Positions 355 through 60,029 of a DNA stretch of 64,000 nt are shown one piece after another. Made by a program: the position numbers and the translations under genes. The DNA is taken from NCBI GenBank assembly GCA_965214755.1, contig OZ243979.1, forward strand, positions 3,530,229 through 3,594,228. Direction: 5' to 3'. This DNA comes from an uncultured Candidatus Binatia bacterium (GTDB lineage Bacteria > Desulfobacterota > Binatia > Bin18). Numbering within the stretch: position 1 is the stretch's first letter; each line of letters starts with the position of its first letter. The notes under the pieces are model-generated. The model had not been told where the DNA came from. It made no database searches and saw only the letters and a program-made list of their open reading frames with translations.

Positions 355-408
355 AAAGAGTAAACGCGTCCTCTTCATGGTACAAGGCTGTTGACACGTT
401 TTCCTTCC
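355..408 (-). repeat. HPE hairpin element copy 0 (degenerate, orientation B)
   Basis: aaagagtaaacgcgtcctcttcatggtacaaggctgttgacacgttttccttcc. Left arm matches the family consensus; right arm is decayed. Sits in a divergent intergenic region. Confidence 0.6.
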
Positions 409-485: not shown

Positions 486-1598
486 ATGCAGGTCCGTTTG
501 CTCACCCAATTCGAGACGCCGCCGGCGCAAAGCGTGGCCACGGACCGGTATTTTCTTCACACCGTGATTGAGACGCAGCTTCCAGTCCTGCGCGTTTGTA
601 CGTATCCAGATGATGTGCTGCTGCTGGGTCGGTATCATGCTGCCGGCGCACAAAGCGGAAACGTGTCAACATCTCGGGTCAGATTGGAGGACACGTTTCC
701 GCTTCTCAGACCAGACCCAGGTCTGACGATTATCCGGCGTCTGACTGGCGGACGAGCCTTTCCGAGTGGCAACGGGTTTGTCCAATTTTCACTCATCGTG
801 CCGCACCGTTCATTTTTCTTTTCCGCCGACCCGCAGCACATCGCGCCGTTTCAGATCCTTAACCGTTACGTCCGCGGGGTGCTGCACGGCCTGAAAACAG
901 GTGGAGTTGAAGTCTTTTATCCAGGCCAGGATTTTCTGACGGTCCGGCGGCTGCCGGTTGGCTGGCACTCTTTTGTGACAGAGGACAGCGGAGCCGTGCT
1001 GTATGAAGGAGGTGTGTTTGTCCAGCGGGATATGAGTCTCCTGCCCCATTTGCTTGACCGGGCGGACCCGCAGGGGACGCTTCCCTGCCAGCTCTTTATG
1101 CCGGATCAAGTCCACAATCTTGGCAAAGTCCTCGGACGATCTCTTGCACCGGACCAGGTCGTTCGTCTGCTCCGGAACGGCTTTACTCAGCAGTTCGGGC
1201 TGGAATGCCTCGACCAAGACCTCAATCCAAACGAGCGTGCGGCCATTCCGGGAAAACAGGAACGGTCTGACCCCATTCCGAACCGGCGTCCTCCACGCTC
1301 CGACCTCCCATACGTAGCAACGAGGCAAACTCCACTTGGAGAACTCCAGATTCGTTTCGCTCTCACTCCCGAGCGGACAATCGAGACGATCCAGTTCTCG
1401 GGCGACTTCATTGCCAATCCGGCCGGGATGCAAGCGTTGGAGCACAATCTCAAAGGTTGTCCACTGGAGAAAGCCGCACTCTGGCAGGTCATTGATGGGA
1501 CGTTTCTTGATCCAGAGCATTATCTGATCGGGGCGGGGAAGTTAGCCGACTTACCCGGATTGCTGCTAAGCGCTTCTCCGGTCCCGCCCGCCAGGTAG
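486..1598 (+). CDS. biotin/lipoate A/B protein ligase family protein (LplA-like) with long C-terminal extension
   Basis: ORF 411..1598. ATG 486 (MQVRLLTQFE...) preferred because family members start close to this segment. RRLTGGRAF..GNGF resembles the RRxSGGGAV.HD.GN ligase motif (from memory). Carries HPE copy 1 in frame. Confidence 0.6.
   Translation: MQVRLLTQFETPPAQSVATDRYFLHTVIETQLPVLRVCTYPDDVLLLGRYHAAGAQSGNVSTSRVRLEDTFPLLRPDPGLTIIRRLTGGRAFPSGNGFVQFSLIVPHRSFFFSADPQHIAPFQILNRYVRGVLHGLKTGGVEVFYPGQDFLTVRRLPVGWHSFVTEDSGAVLYEGGVFVQRDMSLLPHLLDRADPQGTLPCQLFMPDQVHNLGKVLGRSLAPDQVVRLLRNGFTQQFGLECLDQDLNPNERAAIPGKQERSDPIPNRRPPRSDLPYVATRQTPLGELQIRFALTPERTIETIQFSGDFIANPAGMQALEHNLKGCPLEKAALWQVIDGTFLDPEHYLIGAGKLADLPGLLLSASPVPPAR
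652..704 (+). repeat. HPE copy 1 (orientation A), intragenic and in frame
   Basis: aaagcggaaacgtgtcaacatctcgggtcagattggaggacacgtttccgctt. Arms AAGCGGAAACGTGTC / GACACGTTTCCGCTT pair perfectly over 15 bp. Two positions differ from consensus on both arms in a compensatory way. Confidence 0.85.
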
Positions 1599-1601
1599 GC
1601 T

Positions 1602-2486
1602 ATGGAATCTACTCAGAACACCACCCTCCAACTCGACCAGCTTGCAGCCGGACTGCTCGCCGACGATGACCACACACGACTTTCGGCGCTCGATCGACTT
1701 GAGGCGGAGAGAACACTAACGTCTCTCCCACAAGATGTGATGCGTAATCTTCTCGCGTGTCTGGGACATACGACGAAAAAAATACAACGCGGTGCGGCGA
1801 CCGTCCTCACCCGCTTTGCCTCCCGACAGCCTGAAATTATCGAGGCACTGACATACAGGCTGACGGACCCGAACCCGCGGCTGCGCTGGACCGCGGCTTT
1901 TACCCTCTCTCAGCTCGACCTGCCGAGCCCCTCGCCTCAAAGAGTAAACGTGTCCTCCAATCAGACACTACTGCTGGACACGTCTACTCTTCTTCCCGTT
2001 TTGATCGAGAACCTGGGACACCAGGAAAGTGACCTGCGCTGGGCCGCGGCAACCGCTGTCTTGCAGCTCGCCCAGCGCTGTTCTCAAGACGTTGCTCACG
2101 CCATGATCCGGCTTGTGCATACGGGTAATGCCGTGCAACGCCGCATGGCTCTCTACTGCCTGCGCGACCTGAAGCAAACGGATCAAGCGGCCCAGGAAGC
2201 CTATCTGACGAGCCTGAATGACGCGGACCCAATGGTTCGCCTCGGCGGTCTATCCTGTTTGGGTAAGCTCCGATTGACCAGCAGAGCAATTCGAGAAGCG
2301 ATTCTCCGGCTTTTAGAACACGACCCGGACATGGGTGTCCGTCGTTCGGCTGCCATGACCTGCGGACAGATAGGCGACACGGACACACATATCGTTGAGG
2401 CGTTACAGCGAACGGTTCAATCGGCTGACACCAGCCTCAGAAAAGCATCGACCGGAGCACTCAGGCAACTGCCGACCGACTCGTAA
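1602..2486 (+). CDS. HEAT/ARM-like repeat protein
   Basis: 294 aa ORF. Repeated motif of the type D.D..VR..AA.aLg.. (e.g. DPNPRLRWTAAFTLSQL, DADPMVRLGGLSCLGKL, DPDMGVRRSAAMTCGQIG). Carries HPE copy 2 in frame. Confidence 0.75.
   Translation: MESTQNTTLQLDQLAAGLLADDDHTRLSALDRLEAERTLTSLPQDVMRNLLACLGHTTKKIQRGAATVLTRFASRQPEIIEALTYRLTDPNPRLRWTAAFTLSQLDLPSPSPQRVNVSSNQTLLLDTSTLLPVLIENLGHQESDLRWAAATAVLQLAQRCSQDVAHAMIRLVHTGNAVQRRMALYCLRDLKQTDQAAQEAYLTSLNDADPMVRLGGLSCLGKLRLTSRAIREAILRLLEHDPDMGVRRSAAMTCGQIGDTDTHIVEALQRTVQSADTSLRKASTGALRQLPTDS
1940..1992 (-). repeat. HPE copy 2 (orientation B), intragenic and in frame
   Basis: aaagagtaaacgtgtcctccaatcagacactactgctggacacgtctactctt. Translated as [19 protein letters not shown] within the HEAT-repeat ORF. 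Confidence 0.85.
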
Positions 2487-6214: not shown

Positions 6215-6832
6215 ATGAGTAATCTTGCGTATCAAGACGACAGCCTCTACACGCTCGAACAGCTTGCCGAGGATGTGGAAGCGCTGGTCGCCCGTGAACA
6301 GGAACACGCTGCGATTGTTGCGGCGGCGGAACCCCTGCTGGAACGTTTTCTGGCCGCCGGCAGCCTGCCGGAAGAATATTGTCAGCCGGCTCCTGGTCGT
6401 ATTACGACCGAGCATAAAGACTTCACCCTGTATCGCCTCTATCGTGGGCCTGAAGACTGCTTCAATATTATGGCCGCAATATGGCCTCCGGGCGGATCGA
6501 GCGGTGTGCACGATCATGCCGGGAACTGGGTCGTCGAAGGCGTGTATCGGAACCAGCTCCATACCATTCGGTATAAACGTCTCGACGCTGGGACACAGCC
6601 GGGGCATGCGGAACTGCGCGAAACCACCGCGCTCGACCTCCGTCCGGGCGATGTCGCCCACGTCCTGTCTCCGAACGAAGAAATCCATGATTTTCTGAAC
6701 CAGACCGACGAGCCGGTTGTGAGCGTCCATATTTATGGTGGGGATATCAGCACCGAAACGCTGAACTATTTTGACCCGGCCAGCAAGTCGGTCGAGCGTG
6801 TGGCGCACGACCTGCAGTACGATAACGAATAG
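6215..6832 (+). CDS. cupin-fold protein, cysteine-dioxygenase-type-I-like
   Basis: ATG 6215 preceded by CAGGAGGGAAG. GSSGVHDHAGNW...VHIYGG resembles metal-binding cupin motifs. Confidence 0.55.
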   Translation: MSNLAYQDDSLYTLEQLAEDVEALVAREQEHAAIVAAAEPLLERFLAAGSLPEEYCQPAPGRITTEHKDFTLYRLYRGPEDCFNIMAAIWPPGGSSGVHDHAGNWVVEGVYRNQLHTIRYKRLDAGTQPGHAELRETTALDLRPGDVAHVLSPNEEIHDFLNQTDEPVVSVHIYGGDISTETLNYFDPASKSVERVAHDLQYDNE

Positions 6833-6869: not shown

Positions 6870-7625
6870 TCAGTCCCTCACCCTTCCCATTAAGGAGAGC
6901 GTGACCGCCGCAGCCTCTGGGCTGGGCAGGGAAGGGGTTTTCCCCGGAAGCAGCATAAAGTCGTCATAGGCCGCTTCGGATACACTGGTCATCGTGTCGG
7001 AGTCCGAGAGCACGGCGATACCGCGCACCTCTCCCGGTTCAAAGCCAAAAAGGTCTTTATAGTCCTGGTAGAAATTAATGGTTTCTTGTCGCCATTCACC
7101 AGGCTCGGCTGGTCCACGCTGTAAGACGACAACCTTGGCGCGCCAATAGACCGGACTGTCGAAACGCGTACCAACCGCGAGCGTCGAACTCCAGACGTAT
7201 TTAATCACGCGCGGCATGAGGAGGCTGTCAAATATCACGTAGACGGCCGCGGCCGAATCATTCGTTTTTTTTACGCGTTCGTCGGCACCAGGAGGGAGTT
7301 TGGTTGCGCGCCAACGCCAGCGCAAGATGGGATAGTCCTGTGGCTTACATGTATACTCTATGCCGATCTGGACATCCTGGTTGTTGGCATACGCATGGAG
7401 AAATCGATTGCCCTCTTCTTCGGCAATACGGTAGACGGCCTGCGCCGTCGCTTCGTTGCCACGTACTTTCCAGCCCGACGGGAATACGCCAGTCGGGTAG
7501 TGTTGAAAGGTCTCCTGAAAAGGCGTCAAGCCCTGGAGTGTCTGCGCTATCCCAGCATCAGGATCGGCTGTTCTGGGAGTCAACACGCAGGCGAGCAGGA
7601 ATAGTGTGAACCACGTAACATGCAT
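6870..7625 (-). CDS. secreted DUF3047-like protein
   Basis: ATG 7625 preceded by GGGAGG. N-terminal signal-like MHVTWFTLFLLACVL. The LRWRWR... segment is recalled from DUF3047. Confidence 0.6.
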   Translation of the reverse strand: MHVTWFTLFLLACVLTPRTADPDAGIAQTLQGLTPFQETFQHYPTGVFPSGWKVRGNEATAQAVYRIAEEEGNRFLHAYANNQDVQIGIEYTCKPQDYPILRWRWRATKLPPGADERVKKTNDSAAAVYVIFDSLLMPRVIKYVWSSTLAVGTRFDSPVYWRAKVVVLQRGPAEPGEWRQETINFYQDYKDLFGFEPGEVRGIAVLSDSDTMTSVSEAAYDDFMLLPGKTPSLPSPEAAAVTLSLMGRVRD

Positions 7626-12889: not shown

Positions 12890-14164
12890 TCAGACCCGCC
12901 GTTGGCGCTGGGTCTGCTGCGCCTGAGCCGCAAACTCAGACGGCTTCATAATGAGCGAGCCTTTGGATTCTTCCTGTTGGTGTTGCTTTTCTTCCGTGTA
13001 GTGCAGGCCGATGCTCTGCTGGACCAATCCTTCACAAAAGGGAATGCCACTGCCACTCGCCCCCTCTTTTTGGAGGGCAAGCGACACGGCCAGGGCGCGT
13101 TGGGCTGACGTTACACGTCCGGTTGCCGCAAAATACAGCGCCATTTCTTCCAAGCGCCGTGCGTAGACCTGACCGCTCTCCCCTGAGAACACTTCGGCAA
13201 TCGCTTGTTTGATGACATCGTCCACCCGGTCTTTTTGCTGGTGCTGATTCAGCACCAAGGGGCTCTCCTGCGCACTGGTTATCTTTTCGACATAGGGCTT
13301 GGCCTGTTCAGCGTCAAACACCCACCGCTGCATTTCCGGCTCTTCGGCAAGCTGGATGGATGTGGCCAGGAACGTTTCGTCGGCGGCGACCGTCTGACGA
13401 TCTACACTGTCCGGTAGTGGCACTGTTTGGGGTAAAGAGTGAACGTGTCCAGCTTCGTCGGAACGATTGGAGGACGCGTTTACTCTTTCTGTCGGCGTAG
13501 TTAAAACAAAAGACCGAAGCGCGGGGTAGGATTCGACCTCTTTTTTGTCCTGTTCCTTGGCCCGTTCATAGCCTTCCTGCATCAGAAAAGCACAATACTG
13601 CCACGACACCTGAACCATGGTCACGCCGCGGTGGTTGAGCAAGTCCTGAAGCACCTGACGCAGCGTTTTTCTCGATATTTCCGTGCCATCAATAGAGCGC
13701 ATCCCCTCGGGCTCGTTGATTAGCGCAGACAAGAAATGCAGCCCGCCGCCAACACGCGATTTCACTATCCAAACGAGGCGATCACCGCGCCCATCCATTG
13801 CGGACAGATACCCTTCCGGTTCAATCGGGGTGAGAATGGACTTGCCCGCTCCCTTTTGCGGTCGGTCGGTCTGTATCCCTTTTTGCGACAGGCGATAGAG
13901 GGCACGGCTAATCTCTTTACGTAAACGCTTATCAGTGGCCTGCTCTGTCCAATCCACTAGGAACTGGGCCGACTCTGCCGTCTGGACCTCGCCCAGTAAA
14001 GCGGCCAAAGCCACGTCGGCGTCAGCATCCTGTCCTATGCGCTCACGCAGGCTGGCAATATCCAGGCTACGGTCTTGTCCGGCAGAGGGCTGAATTCCCC
14101 ATTCTTCCAGCGCTTTTTTGCCTCGTGCCAGGCATGGGTCGTGCTTCGCACTCTTTTTCGCCAT
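12890..14164 (-). CDS. hypothetical protein (424 aa)
   Basis: Long ORF with protein-like composition. No family recognised. Carries HPE copy 5 in frame. Confidence 0.65.
   Translation of the reverse strand: MAKKSAKHDPCLARGKKALEEWGIQPSAGQDRSLDIASLRERIGQDADADVALAALLGEVQTAESAQFLVDWTEQATDKRLRKEISRALYRLSQKGIQTDRPQKGAGKSILTPIEPEGYLSAMDGRGDRLVWIVKSRVGGGLHFLSALINEPEGMRSIDGTEISRKTLRQVLQDLLNHRGVTMVQVSWQYCAFLMQEGYERAKEQDKKEVESYPALRSFVLTTPTERVNASSNRSDEAGHVHSLPQTVPLPDSVDRQTVAADETFLATSIQLAEEPEMQRWVFDAEQAKPYVEKITSAQESPLVLNQHQQKDRVDDVIKQAIAEVFSGESGQVYARRLEEMALYFAATGRVTSAQRALAVSLALQKEGASGSGIPFCEGLVQQSIGLHYTEEKQHQQEESKGSLIMKPSEFAAQAQQTQRQRRV
13434..13488 (+). repeat. HPE copy 5 (orientation A), intragenic and in frame
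   Basis: aaagagtgaacgtgtccagcttcgtcggaacgattggaggacgcgtttactcttt. Read on the minus strand as ERVNASSNRSDEAGHVHSL. Confidence 0.85.
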
Positions 14165-20921: not shown

Positions 20922-20978
20922 AAAAAAAATATCACCGCCATCATTACCATGAATAAAGGTTGGGCGGTGATATTTTTT
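20922..20978 (-). terminator. hairpin flanked by A/T runs downstream of korB (possible bidirectional terminator)
   Basis: AAAAAAAATATCACCGCC-(23 nt loop)-GGCGGTGATATTTTTT. The large loop lowers confidence. Confidence 0.5.
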
Positions 20979-36767: not shown

Positions 36768-37919
36768 TTACTTACTCCTCCGATAAAATGGCGGCTTGAT
36801 GACCGTCGCCGGAATATGGCGATTCCGGATCGCAACTGCCAGCGGTGTCCCAGAAGAGTAAACGTGCCCAGCTTTGTTGGTTTGGAGGGCGCGTTTACTC
36901 TTTTCGTCCGCGCACGACGGGGAAACATAGCCTAACGCAATACCAACGCCCAGCATGGGAGACTGGGTGCCACTCGTCACCACCCCGACCTGACGTTGAC
37001 TCTTTTGTTCACTCCAAATCGCATACCCCTGGCGAGGAATGCCAGCGCCTTCCATCCTGATCCCCACCAGGTGTTTTTCAATCCCATCAGCCTGCTGCTT
37101 GCGCAATGCCTCGGACCCAATAAAGGGGCCGGCCTCAAAATGGACGAGACGCTGTAAACCAGCCTCCAGCGGCGTGGTATGGGCATCAATATCGTTGCCA
37201 TATAAGAGATAGCCGGCCTCCAGGCGGAGCGTATCTCGTGCTCCCAGGCCGACGGGGACCAGGTTCGCCGCACCTCCTGCCTCGCCGCACGCCTGCCAGA
37301 TATGTTCAGCCCGCTCAGCCGGGACAAACAGCTCAAAGCCATCTTCCCCGGTATAGCCGGTCCGTGCCACAAGAGTCGGCACCCCGGTTACCTCCCCCTG
37401 GGCCGCCCAATAGCGACGAATGGCCGAAAGATCGTGTGATGTCAGCCGAGACAGAACCGTCTCCGCCTGCGGACCCTGGAGGGCGACCAATGCGTACTCG
37501 TCACTCCGGTCAATCACCTCAGCCCGGCCGCGATTGTGCTCTACCATCCACTCGTAGTCGGTCGTGCGGTTGGCGGCGTTCACACACACCAGATAGCGTT
37601 CCTCGGCCAGGCGATAGATAATGACGTCGTCGACTATGCCGCCATCGGCAAAACACATGACCGAGTACTGGGCCTGCATGATCCGTATGCGGGCAATATC
37701 GGTAACGAATAATTCCTGACAGACCTCATACGCCCGAGGACCGGCTATTTCGATCTCGCCCATATGGCTCAGATCGAACAGGCCGACCTGTGTCCGCACG
37801 GCCCGGTGTTCGGCAAGAATCCCGGTATACTGCACGGGCATCTGCCAGCCACCGAATTCAATCATGCGCGCCCCCACGGCACGATGCAGCTTATACAGCG
37901 GCGTTCGGTTGGCCCCCAT
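36768..37919 (-). CDS. gcvT: glycine cleavage system T protein (aminomethyltransferase) with a 17-codon HPE insertion near the C-terminus
   Basis: RTPLY..H...GA.M.EF.GW.MP..Y N-terminus, C-terminal ..V.IRN...PA.V.K.PF. Operon context. Confidence 0.9.
   Translation of the reverse strand: MGANRTPLYKLHRAVGARMIEFGGWQMPVQYTGILAEHRAVRTQVGLFDLSHMGEIEIAGPRAYEVCQELFVTDIARIRIMQAQYSVMCFADGGIVDDVIIYRLAEERYLVCVNAANRTTDYEWMVEHNRGRAEVIDRSDEYALVALQGPQAETVLSRLTSHDLSAIRRYWAAQGEVTGVPTLVARTGYTGEDGFELFVPAERAEHIWQACGEAGGAANLVPVGLGARDTLRLEAGYLLYGNDIDAHTTPLEAGLQRLVHFEAGPFIGSEALRKQQADGIEKHLVGIRMEGAGIPRQGYAIWSEQKSQRQVGVVTSGTQSPMLGVGIALGYVSPSCADEKSKRALQTNKAGHVYSSGTPLAVAIRNRHIPATVIKPPFYRRSK
36853..36903 (+). repeat. 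HPE copy 10 (orientation A), inside gcvT, exactly 51 bp
   Basis: gaagagtaaacgtgcccagctttgttggtttggagggcgcgtttactcttt. GCCC/GGGC replaces GTCC/GGAC (compensated). Confidence 0.85.
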
Positions 37920-59713: not shown

Positions 59714-60029
59714 CCTTGTTGCGGGCTTCCTGATCATACGTCTTCTCCCACTCACGCGGTACTACACCAACCGTCAACAAGGCTACGCCCTTTTCCTTCT
59801 TTCAATAACCGCAGGTTTGTCTCTACTGATTATCGCGTCGCCTGTCGTGTATTACGCGCGTAGTTGGCAGATTGTTGACGTTGAAGCGGTGCACCGCTTC
59901 ATACACGCGGTGCTGCCAGTACCACATGCAGGGAAGAGTCTCGTTACGCTTATTCTCGGTGTCGCGCTTCCGGTAGTTTCATGGCTAGTGTCGAAAGACA
60001 CTAGCCATGAATTTTGTCATTGGATTTAA
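59676..60029 (+). CDS. hypothetical membrane protein (117 aa)
   Basis: GTG 59676 preceded by AGGAG at 6 nt. Three hydrophobic segments. Confidence 0.5.
   Translation: MHGTGLQLPLACSLVAGFLIIRLLPLTRYYTNRQQGYALFLLSITAGLSLLIIASPVVYYARSWQIVDVEAVHRFIHAVLPVPHAGKSLVTLILGVALPVVSWLVSKDTSHEFCHWI

Follow-up and report, generated by a model that had tools for sequence, protein, structure and literature searches.

Near the start of the window, a 64,000-nt stretch of DNA from an uncultured Candidatus Binatia bacterium, lies an LplA-like gene (486..1598, + strand; 370 aa) that is conserved across Binatia, with 282 homologues found. The most likely start is the ATG at 486, which gives MQVRLL as in the orthologues, rather than the GTG at 411. 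The protein matches the Pfam families PF21948 (LplA/B catalytic; 31.8 bits, cut-off 27) and PF10437 (28.8 bits, cut-off 24), and a profile search of the PDB returns the lipoate-protein ligases 8cri and 5iby with E about 5e-12. The ligase catalytic lysine (K of GxKVSGxA) is absent: in the profile alignment, the lysine of GFKVSGNA in 8cri falls opposite a Pro in ...RRLPVGWHSF.... Because of this replacement we call the gene LplA-like and do not treat it as a demonstrated ligase.

Within this gene, on the + strand at 652..705, sits a 54-nt copy of a palindromic repeat in the A sense, which scores 47.7 bits (E 9e-13) in nhmmer against a profile built from the window's own copies. From 652 to 705 it reads AAAGCGGAAACGTGTCA, ACATCTCGGGTCAGATTGGA and GGACACGTTTCCGCTTC. 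The sequence-only reading had described an in-frame repeat copy in a ligase-like gene, and both the translation of the ORF through the copy (...HAAGAQSGNVSTSRVRLEDTFPLLRPD...) and the Pfam profiles agree with it; the 54 nt contribute 18 codons (QSGNVSTSRVRLEDTFPL), which are residues 56-73 of the protein. That reading had ended the element at 704. The copy itself is real, and the comparison of filled with empty sites corrects its extent to 652-705.

The two arms of the stem, at 653..667 and 690..704 (both + strand), are 15 nt long and 100% complementary, with 22 nt between them according to the repeat finder, so the perfect 15-bp stem that had been claimed is confirmed by the program as well as by the letters. 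The unpaired middle (668..689, + strand) is made up of the 20-nt family loop, 669-688, and a mismatched closing pair, 668 A and 689 G. Each arm matches the consensus at 14 of 17 positions. The left arm departs from the window consensus with C at 656 and G at 658, and the right arm departs with it: 656 A>C is accompanied by 701 T>G, and 658 T>G by 699 A>C, so both variant pairs are Watson-Crick. The loop ends in ATTGGA, of which the 3' TTGGA is conserved family-wide, and it begins with A-ACA, the second most common variant, in place of the usual AGC. Its sequence, CTCGGGTCAGA, is specific to the LplA-like locus and identical in all four insert-bearing orthologues. The hairpin has predicted free energies of -27.9 and -32.7 kcal/mol as RNA on the two strands (z -4.0 and -6.1) and -17.6 kcal/mol as DNA. 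With arms and spacing that match the consensus, an asymmetric loop of ~20 nt and an empty counterpart of its site in relatives, the copy belongs to the family described below.

The family consensus is AAAGAGTAAACGTGTCC-N20-GGACACGTTTACTCTTT, and its arms are matched 25 times in the window where 0.94 matches are expected. This gives 12 copies, or roughly one per 5 kb. Across the 99 loci analysed, the repeat has two 17-nt arms, an asymmetric loop of ~20 nt and a modal length of 54 nt, which is 18 codons. The loop ends, AGC...TTGGA, are conserved and define the orientation of the repeat. Four of the 12 copies in the window are intragenic. Besides the one at 652-705 these lie at 1939 (in a HEAT-repeat gene), 13434 and 36853 (GcvT), all in the B sense, so it was true of the window that the copy in the LplA-like gene is the only intragenic one in the A sense. 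This is a sampling effect of a single window, since family-wide there are 13 A-sense and 17 B-sense intragenic copies. The related claim that both orientations can be read through holds in the window and across the family alike.

Copies show no preferred context. About 30% of the loci (30 of 99) are inside long ORFs, while 36 copies lie between tandem genes, 15 between convergent and 14 between divergent ones, and orientation with respect to genes is unbiased (31 A vs 35 B). At the sites themselves, 61 of the 99 loci share no flanking bases that could represent a target-site duplication and 32 share one, which is about the level expected by chance, and neither flank carries a conserved tetra- or pentanucleotide, with no base above 56% at any flank position and a weak bias that is symmetric on both sides. 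The repeat appears to be confined to the class Binatia in this sample. Matches of the DNA pattern outside Binatia scored below 22 bits against the family profile and resemble ordinary A/T-flanked terminator hairpins, and we do not count them as members; a blastn search of a plasmid collection with a consensus-like copy matched nothing. The literature retrieved on Binatota together with "palindromic" does not describe these repeats. The family is undescribed, but its kind is familiar, since both the Rickettsia palindromic elements and the REP repeats are similar.

The sequence-only reading had pointed to an alignment of orthologues as the way to confirm that the segment is an insertion, and this is what the alignment shows. 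The insert is missing from ~20 aligned orthologues, with identity down to 49%, and most orthologues lack it. In the DNA, the site is filled in the window and in three other loci (L114, L115 and L116), and it is empty in L118, L119, L120 and L121; the empty site reads GCAC|TCAG (L118, L119 and L120), and the difference is a precise insertion of 54 nt with no target duplication. A contig of a relative in run X7 is likewise a net 54 nt shorter at this site, and a metagenome scan for further LplA-like orthologues yielded two loci, identical to one another and both empty. Four independent ENA assemblies contain the insert, as do several Logan runs and one contig derived from RNA, which rules out an assembly artefact. 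A second filled/empty comparison comes from the adjacent HEAT-repeat gene, whose in-frame copy (1939..1992, - strand, B sense) is missing in L115 and L118; there too, 54 nt were inserted without target duplication. Just upstream of the LplA-like gene, in a divergent intergenic region, lies a degenerate copy (355..405, - strand; nhmmer 39 bits) that has orthologues in L115 and L118.

These comparisons show that the repeat is mobile and non-autonomous, inserts without duplicating its target and is translated as an 18-residue loop. AlphaFold models the host protein with a pLDDT of 88, falling below 50 at residues 55-76, and the inserted residues are accordingly predicted to be a disordered loop on the surface. 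The ORF is intact in every insert-bearing allele, and with a confident model of the protein we reject the reading of the gene as a pseudogene. A metatranscriptome contig spans the insert, so it is transcribed together with the LplA-like gene. The LplA-like genes of L115 and L118 are 97.7% identical, yet one has the insert and the other lacks it; of the 25 differences between them, 10 fall in the 58 nt that flank the insert (P 3e-7). As read from this pair of alleles, the clustering shows a short recombination tract that would carry or remove the insert between Binatia lineages.

The two paired changes in the stem have different histories. Both had been taken for compensatory changes. The paired changes are real, but of the two only 656/701, which differs among the orthologues of the insert, is specific to this copy; 658/699 is a subfamily state. 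At this position, number 7 of the arm, the 99 loci have T-A at 59 and G-C at 28, and G-C is common to all four insert-bearing orthologues, which makes inheritance from the source copy probable. At 656/701, number 5 of the arm, L114 has A-T and the window, L115 and L116 have C-G. Since L114 retains A-T, the change from A-T to C-G would have arisen in place, as far as four orthologues can tell. Within the insert, the orthologues show a single synonymous change, the one at 701 (CCT>CCG). Taken on its own, the copy could owe its remaining double change to chance at about 4-8%, and the argument for compensation therefore rests on the excess across the family.

Covariation across the family is real. 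Counted at all positions, double-sided cells number 49 against 18.4±3.2 in shuffles; without positions 1, 7 and 17 they number 17 against 2.0±1.4, a value reached by 0 of 500 shuffles; and with one representative per locus there are 10 against 1.21 expected (P 6e-7). Orthologous copies, in which the changes occurred in place, have 5 doubles against 0.38 expected (P 5e-5). The larger alignment of copies, which had been named as the place where the idea of compensation could fail, does show covariation. Of the five in-place doubles, four are transversion pairs; these cannot pass through a wobble intermediate and so count for a cause at the level of DNA over one at the level of RNA. Many mismatches remain uncorrected, with 84 mismatched stem states against 16 doubles, which counts against a correcting process. 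Among the mismatches there is no G·T excess in the A sense (26 G·T vs 29 A·C) and no G·U excess on the presumed mRNA strand (17 G·U vs 12 A·C, P 0.46, a comparison of low power with 29 informative mismatches and rough gene calls). Stems are equally intact inside and outside genes, at 0.80 and 0.93 mismatches per copy. Orthologous copies diverge by 5.9% in loops and 5.8% in arms, about half of the 11.2% seen in their flanks, in a sample biased to well-preserved copies.

A single account could join these observations, and we give it, taken as a whole, about an even chance of being right. The copy at 652-705 probably arrived as a mobile, "G-type" repeat (AAAGAGG.../...CCTCTTT), a state still seen in L114, and its length of 18 codons together with one open frame let it be translated. 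The change from A-T to C-G would have followed at the locus, and short recombination tracts that carry or remove the insert between Binatia lineages would account for the patchy distribution of the allele that bears it. A mutation in one arm would reach the other arm through template switching within the molecule, or through repair in the hairpin or cruciform, that is, through quasipalindrome correction. Such correction would be mutational in nature and would affect all members of the family regardless of orientation or surrounding genes; it would not stem from a function of this copy's RNA. In E. coli, template switching has been documented at imperfect inverted repeats (PMC7202029), and it has been proposed as the origin of "compensatory" changes in hairpins (PMC8794818). 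Given that wobble pairs are not in excess and that neither strand nor context makes a difference, we favour DNA-level correction from arm to arm by quasipalindrome template switching, rather than selection on RNA structure, as what probably keeps the arms complementary. The sequence-only reading was correct that a coding-only constraint would not preserve pairing, but this does not prove selection on structure, since template switching in DNA yields the same paired changes.

Selection is nonetheless the main rival, one we regard as possible though clearly on the unlikely side. Mutations in a single arm would be deleterious and later compensated, either because the hairpin has an RNA function (stability, processing or ribosome pausing) or because a transposase or host protein binds it as single-stranded DNA. 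The strong excess of compensated pairs would fit, as would the great stability of the hairpin on both strands, the conserved loop ends, the transcription of the insert with its gene and the slow divergence of the elements, loops included, relative to their flanks, except that this last difference may stem from ascertainment. Selection on RNA should leave G·U enriched, and it is enriched on neither strand, nor on the mRNA strand; copies are not biased in orientation with respect to transcription and favour no context, the in-place doubles are mostly transversion pairs, no Rfam family matches, and the 652-705 copy is not terminator-like. Selection for transposability, for its part, would be powerless on a copy that stays in place. 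On a further reading, the hairpins of Binatia would be more than selfish DNA with mutationally corrected arms: as structured elements they would be held by purifying selection, which would preserve in place both the pairing of the stem and the loop ends AGC...TTGGA, and a dedicated protein (for example a new hairpin-specific transposase or a host factor) would recognise them. In-frame copies would then be kept as nucleic-acid signals and would pass from lineage to lineage on short conversion tracts, much as in homing; we think this improbable.

It is more improbable still that nothing changed in place and that both variant pairs came ready-made from a source copy, either at insertion or when ectopic gene conversion later overwrote the insert. 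Inheritance is very likely for 658/699, given the 28 loci with G-C, and C-G at position 5 also occurs at the unrelated loci L075:1492, L056:2272 and L056:4170. In L114, however, the loop specific to this locus accompanies an A-T pair at position 5, which places both states within one orthologous insertion, whereas ectopic conversion would have swapped the loop too; AAAGCGG...CCGCTT is found in no other copy among 123 sampled; and the origin of the paired variants in the source copies would be left unexplained. Two independent substitutions that hit paired positions by chance are the least probable reading, and a remote one: for this copy the partner would have changed to the complementary base with a probability of about 4-8% at the observed divergence, and the right-arm change, being synonymous, was free to drift, but the pattern recurs at 4 other orthologous loci and throughout the family, and no shuffle reached the observed values. 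The paired changes are typical of the repeat family and need not imply a function for the copy at 652-705.

Several other identities were considered for the hairpin and rejected. It does not qualify as an intrinsic terminator or attenuator: its stem runs into CUCAGACC and not into a run of U, a terminator scan does not report the copy, and the family has no preference in orientation or position. A palindromic operator for a dimeric DNA-binding protein would have half-sites that are conserved and do not covary, and ~30% of the copies are intragenic. An integron attC site is excluded by the absence of the core-site motif and by the scatter of copies in housekeeping genes. Rfam gave no match in the window at the gathering score, and lenient thresholds produced sub-threshold, generic hairpin matches on two other copies. 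Pfam, applied to 25 of the window's predicted proteins, showed housekeeping genes, with no transposase among them.

None of this amounts to a new kind of biological system. Rickettsia palindromic elements (RPEs) were reportedly described by Ogata et al. in 2000 as in-frame repeats in protein-coding genes, and they are not known to be related in sequence to the Binatia repeat. RPEs are dispersed palindromic repeats, many of them in frame in genes and in either orientation, that are translated as extra surface segments tolerated by the host protein and are present or absent among orthologues (PMC10969869; PMC1779305). The Binatia repeat is likewise a palindromic repeat translated in frame in an otherwise conserved protein, but it is 54 nt long where RPEs are about 100-150 bp, and its host is Candidatus Binatia and not Rickettsia (Alphaproteobacteria); we class it as working like an RPE and not as a member of that family. 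REP and REPIN elements, which are mobilised by RAYT (Y1 HUH) transposases, are likewise short repeats that form hairpins and reach high copy numbers in a genome; as in the Binatia repeat, their stems covary from copy to copy and from subfamily to subfamily, most copies are intergenic, and there is no target-site duplication. REPs, however, are typically 20-40 nt long with short loops and extragenic by definition, whereas the Binatia repeat has a loop of ~20 nt, is intragenic in ~30% of cases and lacks a conserved flanking tetranucleotide. Nor does it have the strand-specific conserved target tetra- or pentanucleotide by which IS200/IS605-derived elements are recognised. In phmmer searches, approximate IS200, IS608 and E. 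coli RAYT queries found no RAYT or IS200-like gene in the ORFs of the window and 121 loci, a sample of only ~0.9 Mb from many genomes and too small to speak against a cognate transposase gene. Like MITEs, the repeat is non-autonomous, bounded by inverted repeats and polymorphic in its insertions, but it makes no target-site duplication (two filled/empty pairs, 99 loci) and consists of little beyond its two inverted repeats, far below typical MITE size. Elhai and colleagues are said to have described in 2008 very small dispersed cyanobacterial repeats that are palindromic, mobile and found within and between genes; by their description, these are similarly tiny but have another sequence, another size (about 21-27 nt) and hosts from another phylum. 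As for the favoured process, quasipalindrome template switching makes imperfect inverted repeats perfect in one event and produces apparent compensatory doubles, transversions included, independently of transcription (PMC7202029, PMC8794818, PMC5453318); experiments with reporters in E. coli and yeast have shown it, and for RNA genes it has been inferred, whereas in Binatia it is substitution patterns that would point to it.

The LplA-like gene offers a compact case of protein evolution driven by a repeat, in a phylum that metagenomes alone have revealed; it comes with empty sites in orthologues, with an allele in an intermediate state and with more than one independent assembly. Complete Binatia chromosomes contain many orthologous copies of the repeat, and these form a good natural test set in which selected compensatory substitutions in hairpins can be set against one-step template switching. 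The repeats also produce false N-terminal extensions and odd 18-residue insertions in gene calls from Binatia, of which annotators should be warned.

The copy of the Binatia palindromic repeat in the LplA-like gene (486-1598, + strand) occupies 652-705 and reads AAAGCGGAAACGTGTCA-ACATCTCGGGTCAGATTGGA-GGACACGTTTCCGCTTC, and an inverted-repeat search places its arms at 653-667 and 690-704, 15 nt each, 100% complementary and 22 nt apart. The consensus of the repeat in the window is AAAGAGTAAACGTGTCC-N20-GGACACGTTTACTCTTT; its 15-mer arm pattern occurs 25 times there, against 0.94 expected from shuffles, and 12 copies are full. Because the loop is asymmetric, with AGC(A/T)T at its 5' end and (A)TTGGA at its 3' end, an orientation can be defined, and the LplA copy is in the A sense on the + strand. 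Its departures from the window consensus form two pairs, 656 (A>C) with 701 (T>G) and 658 (T>G) with 699 (A>C), so the sequence-only reading was right in every detail when it described two paired differences within a perfect 15-bp stem.

The LplA copy is an insertion, as that reading had supposed. Its 18 residues, QSGNVSTSRVRLEDTFPL, are found only in the three closest protein clusters, P0001 (95% identity), P0002 (88%) and P0003 (77%), and are missing from every other aligned homologue, down to 49% identity. In orthologue DNA (six fetched loci and two more from a metagenome scan), the empty site is ...GGCGCAC|TCAG... and the filled site ...GGCGCAC[AAAG...54 nt...CTTT]TCAG..., an insertion of exactly 54 nt with no target-site duplication. 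Independently assembled sequencing runs confirm both states: a contig of a ~96%-identical relative (X5) has the insert, and one from a more distant relative (X7) is shorter by a net 54 nt at exactly this site; a 256-nt metatranscriptome contig (X22), which could reflect DNA contamination, spans the insert and flanking coding sequence. The neighbouring HEAT-repeat gene (1602-2486) holds another in-frame 54-nt copy, at 1939-1992 in the B sense and likewise with no target duplication, that is present in the fetched loci L119, L114, L117 and L059; L115 and L118 have an empty site. The left arm of this copy carries uncompensated changes, one in the window and three in L114.

The open reading frame through the LplA copy encodes PF21948 (LplA/B catalytic domain) and PF10437 (ligase C-terminal domain), both above curated cut-offs, and its product has 282 homologues and is distantly but clearly related to the solved lipoate-protein ligases 8cri and 5iby (E about 5e-12). 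The catalytic Lys of the solved ligases (GFKVSGNAQF) aligns with a Pro (RRLPVGWHSF) in this protein and its homologues, a conserved family of Binatia and Deltaproteobacteria-like sequences, so we limit the annotation to LplA-like; judging by this alignment, the family may not be a ligase. An AlphaFold2 model built from a 42-sequence alignment is confident overall (pLDDT 88, pTM 0.88), but residues 55-76, between two strands of the N-terminal domain, have pLDDT <50, and the insert is thus predicted to be a disordered surface loop.

Near-identity of the insert among relatives is a poor guide to constraint. The window gene shares 81% identity with that of L115 (69% at third codon positions), but only 1 of 54 nt separates their inserts. 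The L115 and L118 genes are 97.7% identical, but only one bears the insert, and 10 of their 25 differences fall within the 58 aligned nt immediately beside it (P 3e-7, for a window picked post hoc), where L115 resembles other lineages. A short recombination tract has therefore carried an insert-bearing, or empty, segment from one lineage to another, so near-identity reflects young age in some lineages and is not readable as purifying selection. The conversion tract around the insertion site is about 110 nt in the L115-L118 comparison. A protein cluster among the homologues, P0028, also looks mosaic, its N-terminal half like P0008 and its C-terminal half like P0024.

An nhmmer profile built from the window copies, applied to the window and the fetched loci with a cut-off of at least 26 bits, found 123 copies, or 99 loci after orthologous copies were merged. 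Copies are most often 54 nt long (59 of 99 loci), and their loop ends are conserved. In an ungapped alignment of 108 distinct copies, comprising the arms and six loop bases per end, the full 17-bp structure has 49 double-sided cells, where shuffles give 18.4±3.2 (none of 500 attains 49) and sliding the partner gives 3-8. With the subfamily pair and two end pairs excluded, 17 cells remain against 2.0±1.4, and 7 pairs against 1.8, neither reached in 500 shuffles. With one representative per locus, there are 10 compensated doubles where independent arms would give 1.21 (P 6e-7). The comparison least affected by shared ancestry, that of orthologous copies at the same locus, finds 5 stem positions with two Watson-Crick states and 23 with a mismatch state, against 0.38 doubles expected (P 5e-5). 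The larger alignment thus bears out the covariation that had been proposed, which is genuine and belongs to the repeat family, not to the coding LplA copy.

The two pairs in the LplA copy have different histories. At stem position 7 (658/699), 59 loci have T-A and 28 have G-C, the latter being the hallmark of a large subfamily, represented in this window by the LplA copy only. All four insert-bearing orthologues have G-C, so the simplest reading is that the element arrived as G-type. The switch can also occur in place: orthologous copies with the same flanks and loop are T-type at L030:739 and G-type at L038:5650 and L074:5452. G-type copies are mildly enriched in genes (13 of 27 vs 14 of 56, P 0.046), and in the LplA copy's frame they replace Val and Thr with Gly and Pro. 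Stem position 5 (656/701) is A-T in L114 (P0002; AAAGAGG.../...CCTCTTT) and C-G in the window, L115 and L116/117 (AAAGCGG.../...CCGCTT). Since all these inserts share one locus-specific loop, the double change took place inside an orthologous insertion. Its left-arm half is AGA>AGC (Arg>Ser) and its right-arm half CCT>CCG, the sole synonymous difference in the insert among four lineages; the remaining differences, L>F, D>E and F>L, are non-synonymous, as expected of a loosely constrained loop. For the LplA copy alone, the divergence observed gives the partner a ~4-8% probability of changing to the complementary base by chance, which is not negligible. The A>C / T>G change at position 5 recurs at unrelated loci, L075:1492, L056:2272, L056:4170, L114:1877, L059:5859 and L116:1367, compensated at three of these loci and in one arm alone at the other three, and the position may be a mutational hot spot.

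The most likely cause of the paired changes, to which we give roughly an even chance, is template switching between the arms of the quasipalindrome, in which a change in one arm would be copied into the other intramolecularly, in one event and for any type of substitution. Experiments in E. coli have established such switching between imperfect inverted repeats (PMC7202029), and it has been put forward as a general origin of seemingly compensatory substitutions in hairpins (PMC8794818, PMC5453318). Selection on the hairpin, either as RNA or as single-stranded DNA recognised by a transposase, is a serious rival, though a less likely one. The conserved loop ends favour it, as does the divergence of orthologous copies at about half the rate of their flanks (5.9% for loops and 5.8% for arms vs 11.2%), although this difference is biased, the loci having been found through well-preserved copies, and is not significant at two loci retrieved by protein.

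Several observations argue against selection on RNA structure in particular. Stem mismatches have no wobble preference, either in the A sense (26 G·T vs 29 A·C) or on the presumed mRNA strand (17 G·U vs 12 A·C, P 0.46); all but one of the five in-place doubles are transversion pairs (three A-T>C-G, one T-A>G-C), for which no G·U intermediate is possible; and stem integrity is equal inside and outside genes, with random orientation relative to them. Template switching within a quasipalindrome yields just such patterns. Recognition of the palindrome by a dimeric protein was rejected, as its half-sites would show no covariation. The sequence-only reading had argued that the pairing exceeds what a coding-only constraint would preserve: as an observation of paired changes this stands, but it supports a selected structure less strongly than was claimed.

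The repeat also bears marks of mobility. No target-site duplication or strong flanking motif is seen at the 99 loci, and identical copies occupy separate loci of one genome (three in CBDEVZ010000008.1, for example), which is recent spread. The lack of a target duplication, the precise filled and empty sites and the identical copies would fit single-strand transposition that recognises hairpins, as in REP/RAYT or IS200/IS605 systems; however, no conserved tetranucleotide adjoins the copies. No Y1 transposase match was found in the ~0.9 Mb sampled, too small a sample to conclude from, and the 25 window proteins scanned are products of housekeeping genes. In behaviour the repeat most resembles the Rickettsia palindromic elements, which likewise lie in frame, are translated and tolerated within surface loops, and vary in presence between orthologues; in anatomy it most resembles REP-type hairpin repeats; by the features testable, the repeat belongs to neither, and it lacks the target duplication that is a criterion for MITEs. 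In locus L029, two identical inverted copies (6478-6531 and 7310-7363) lie on either side of a gene for a single-stranded-DNA-binding protein (SSB), and the left copy is in frame within a 302-aa ORF (RGNVSSSGMSMVDTFPL) that is presumably MaoC-dehydratase-like; a third identical copy in L011, from the same genome, points to recent spread. Across the 99 loci the flanks have a weak two-fold-symmetric bias (G -5, C -4, G +4, C +5), with nearly no A at -6 or T at +6, which might reflect a target preference or an additional short stem past a 3-nt internal loop; the LplA copy lacks this symmetric bias.

A pattern scan of one genome per species, specifying the inner stem alone so as to leave the outer stem unbiased, has matches on many Candidatus Binatia MAG chromosomes and one strong pair in a MAG labelled Thermodesulfobacteriota. 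Matches in other phyla scored <22 bits against the family profile, resemble ordinary hairpins and were rejected as members. No Rfam family or plasmid-collection sequence matches the repeat, and a literature search found no published account of it; it is apparently an undescribed family, from an uncultured phylum. Rough gene calls place 30 loci inside long ORFs, 36 between co-directional, 15 between convergent and 14 between divergent genes, with no orientation bias relative to transcription (31 A / 35 B). Lengths are multiples of three in 27 of 30 intragenic vs 40 of 69 intergenic copies, and intragenic copies use two frames, (Q/K)R(V/G)NVS...DTF(T/P)L and KSKRV...GHVYS, in both senses.

Elsewhere in the window, a 51-nt copy (36853-36903) in the GcvT-like gene 36768-37919 (- strand) uses the other frame (EKSKRALQTNKAGHVYSS), lies about 30 residues from the C-terminus of the aminomethyltransferase-like protein, and has a compensated T-A>C-G pair and a T·G pair in its stem. 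A 55-nt copy (13434-13488; ERVNASSNRSDEAGHVHSL) lies in ORF 12890-14164 (- strand), of 424 aa and with no Pfam match; the frame differs between its two arms, so either the flanks compensate or this ORF is not one gene. The LplA-like gene and a luciferase-like monooxygenase gene diverge from an intergenic region that holds a degenerate copy (355-405, - strand). In relatives, gene prediction has run through this copy, giving P0003, P0024 and P0013 false N-terminal extensions (...HKAVDTFSFL...), and the mechanical ORF start at GTG 411 is likewise upstream of the conserved ATG at 486. Two perfect inverted repeats in the window are unrelated to the Binatia repeat: TTCATGGCTAGTGTC/GACACTAGCCATGAA at 59978-60011 (15 bp, 4-nt loop), and AAAAAATATCACCGCC/GGCGGTGATATTTTTT at 20924-20978 (16 bp, 23-nt spacer), which has A and T runs on either side, like a bidirectional terminator.
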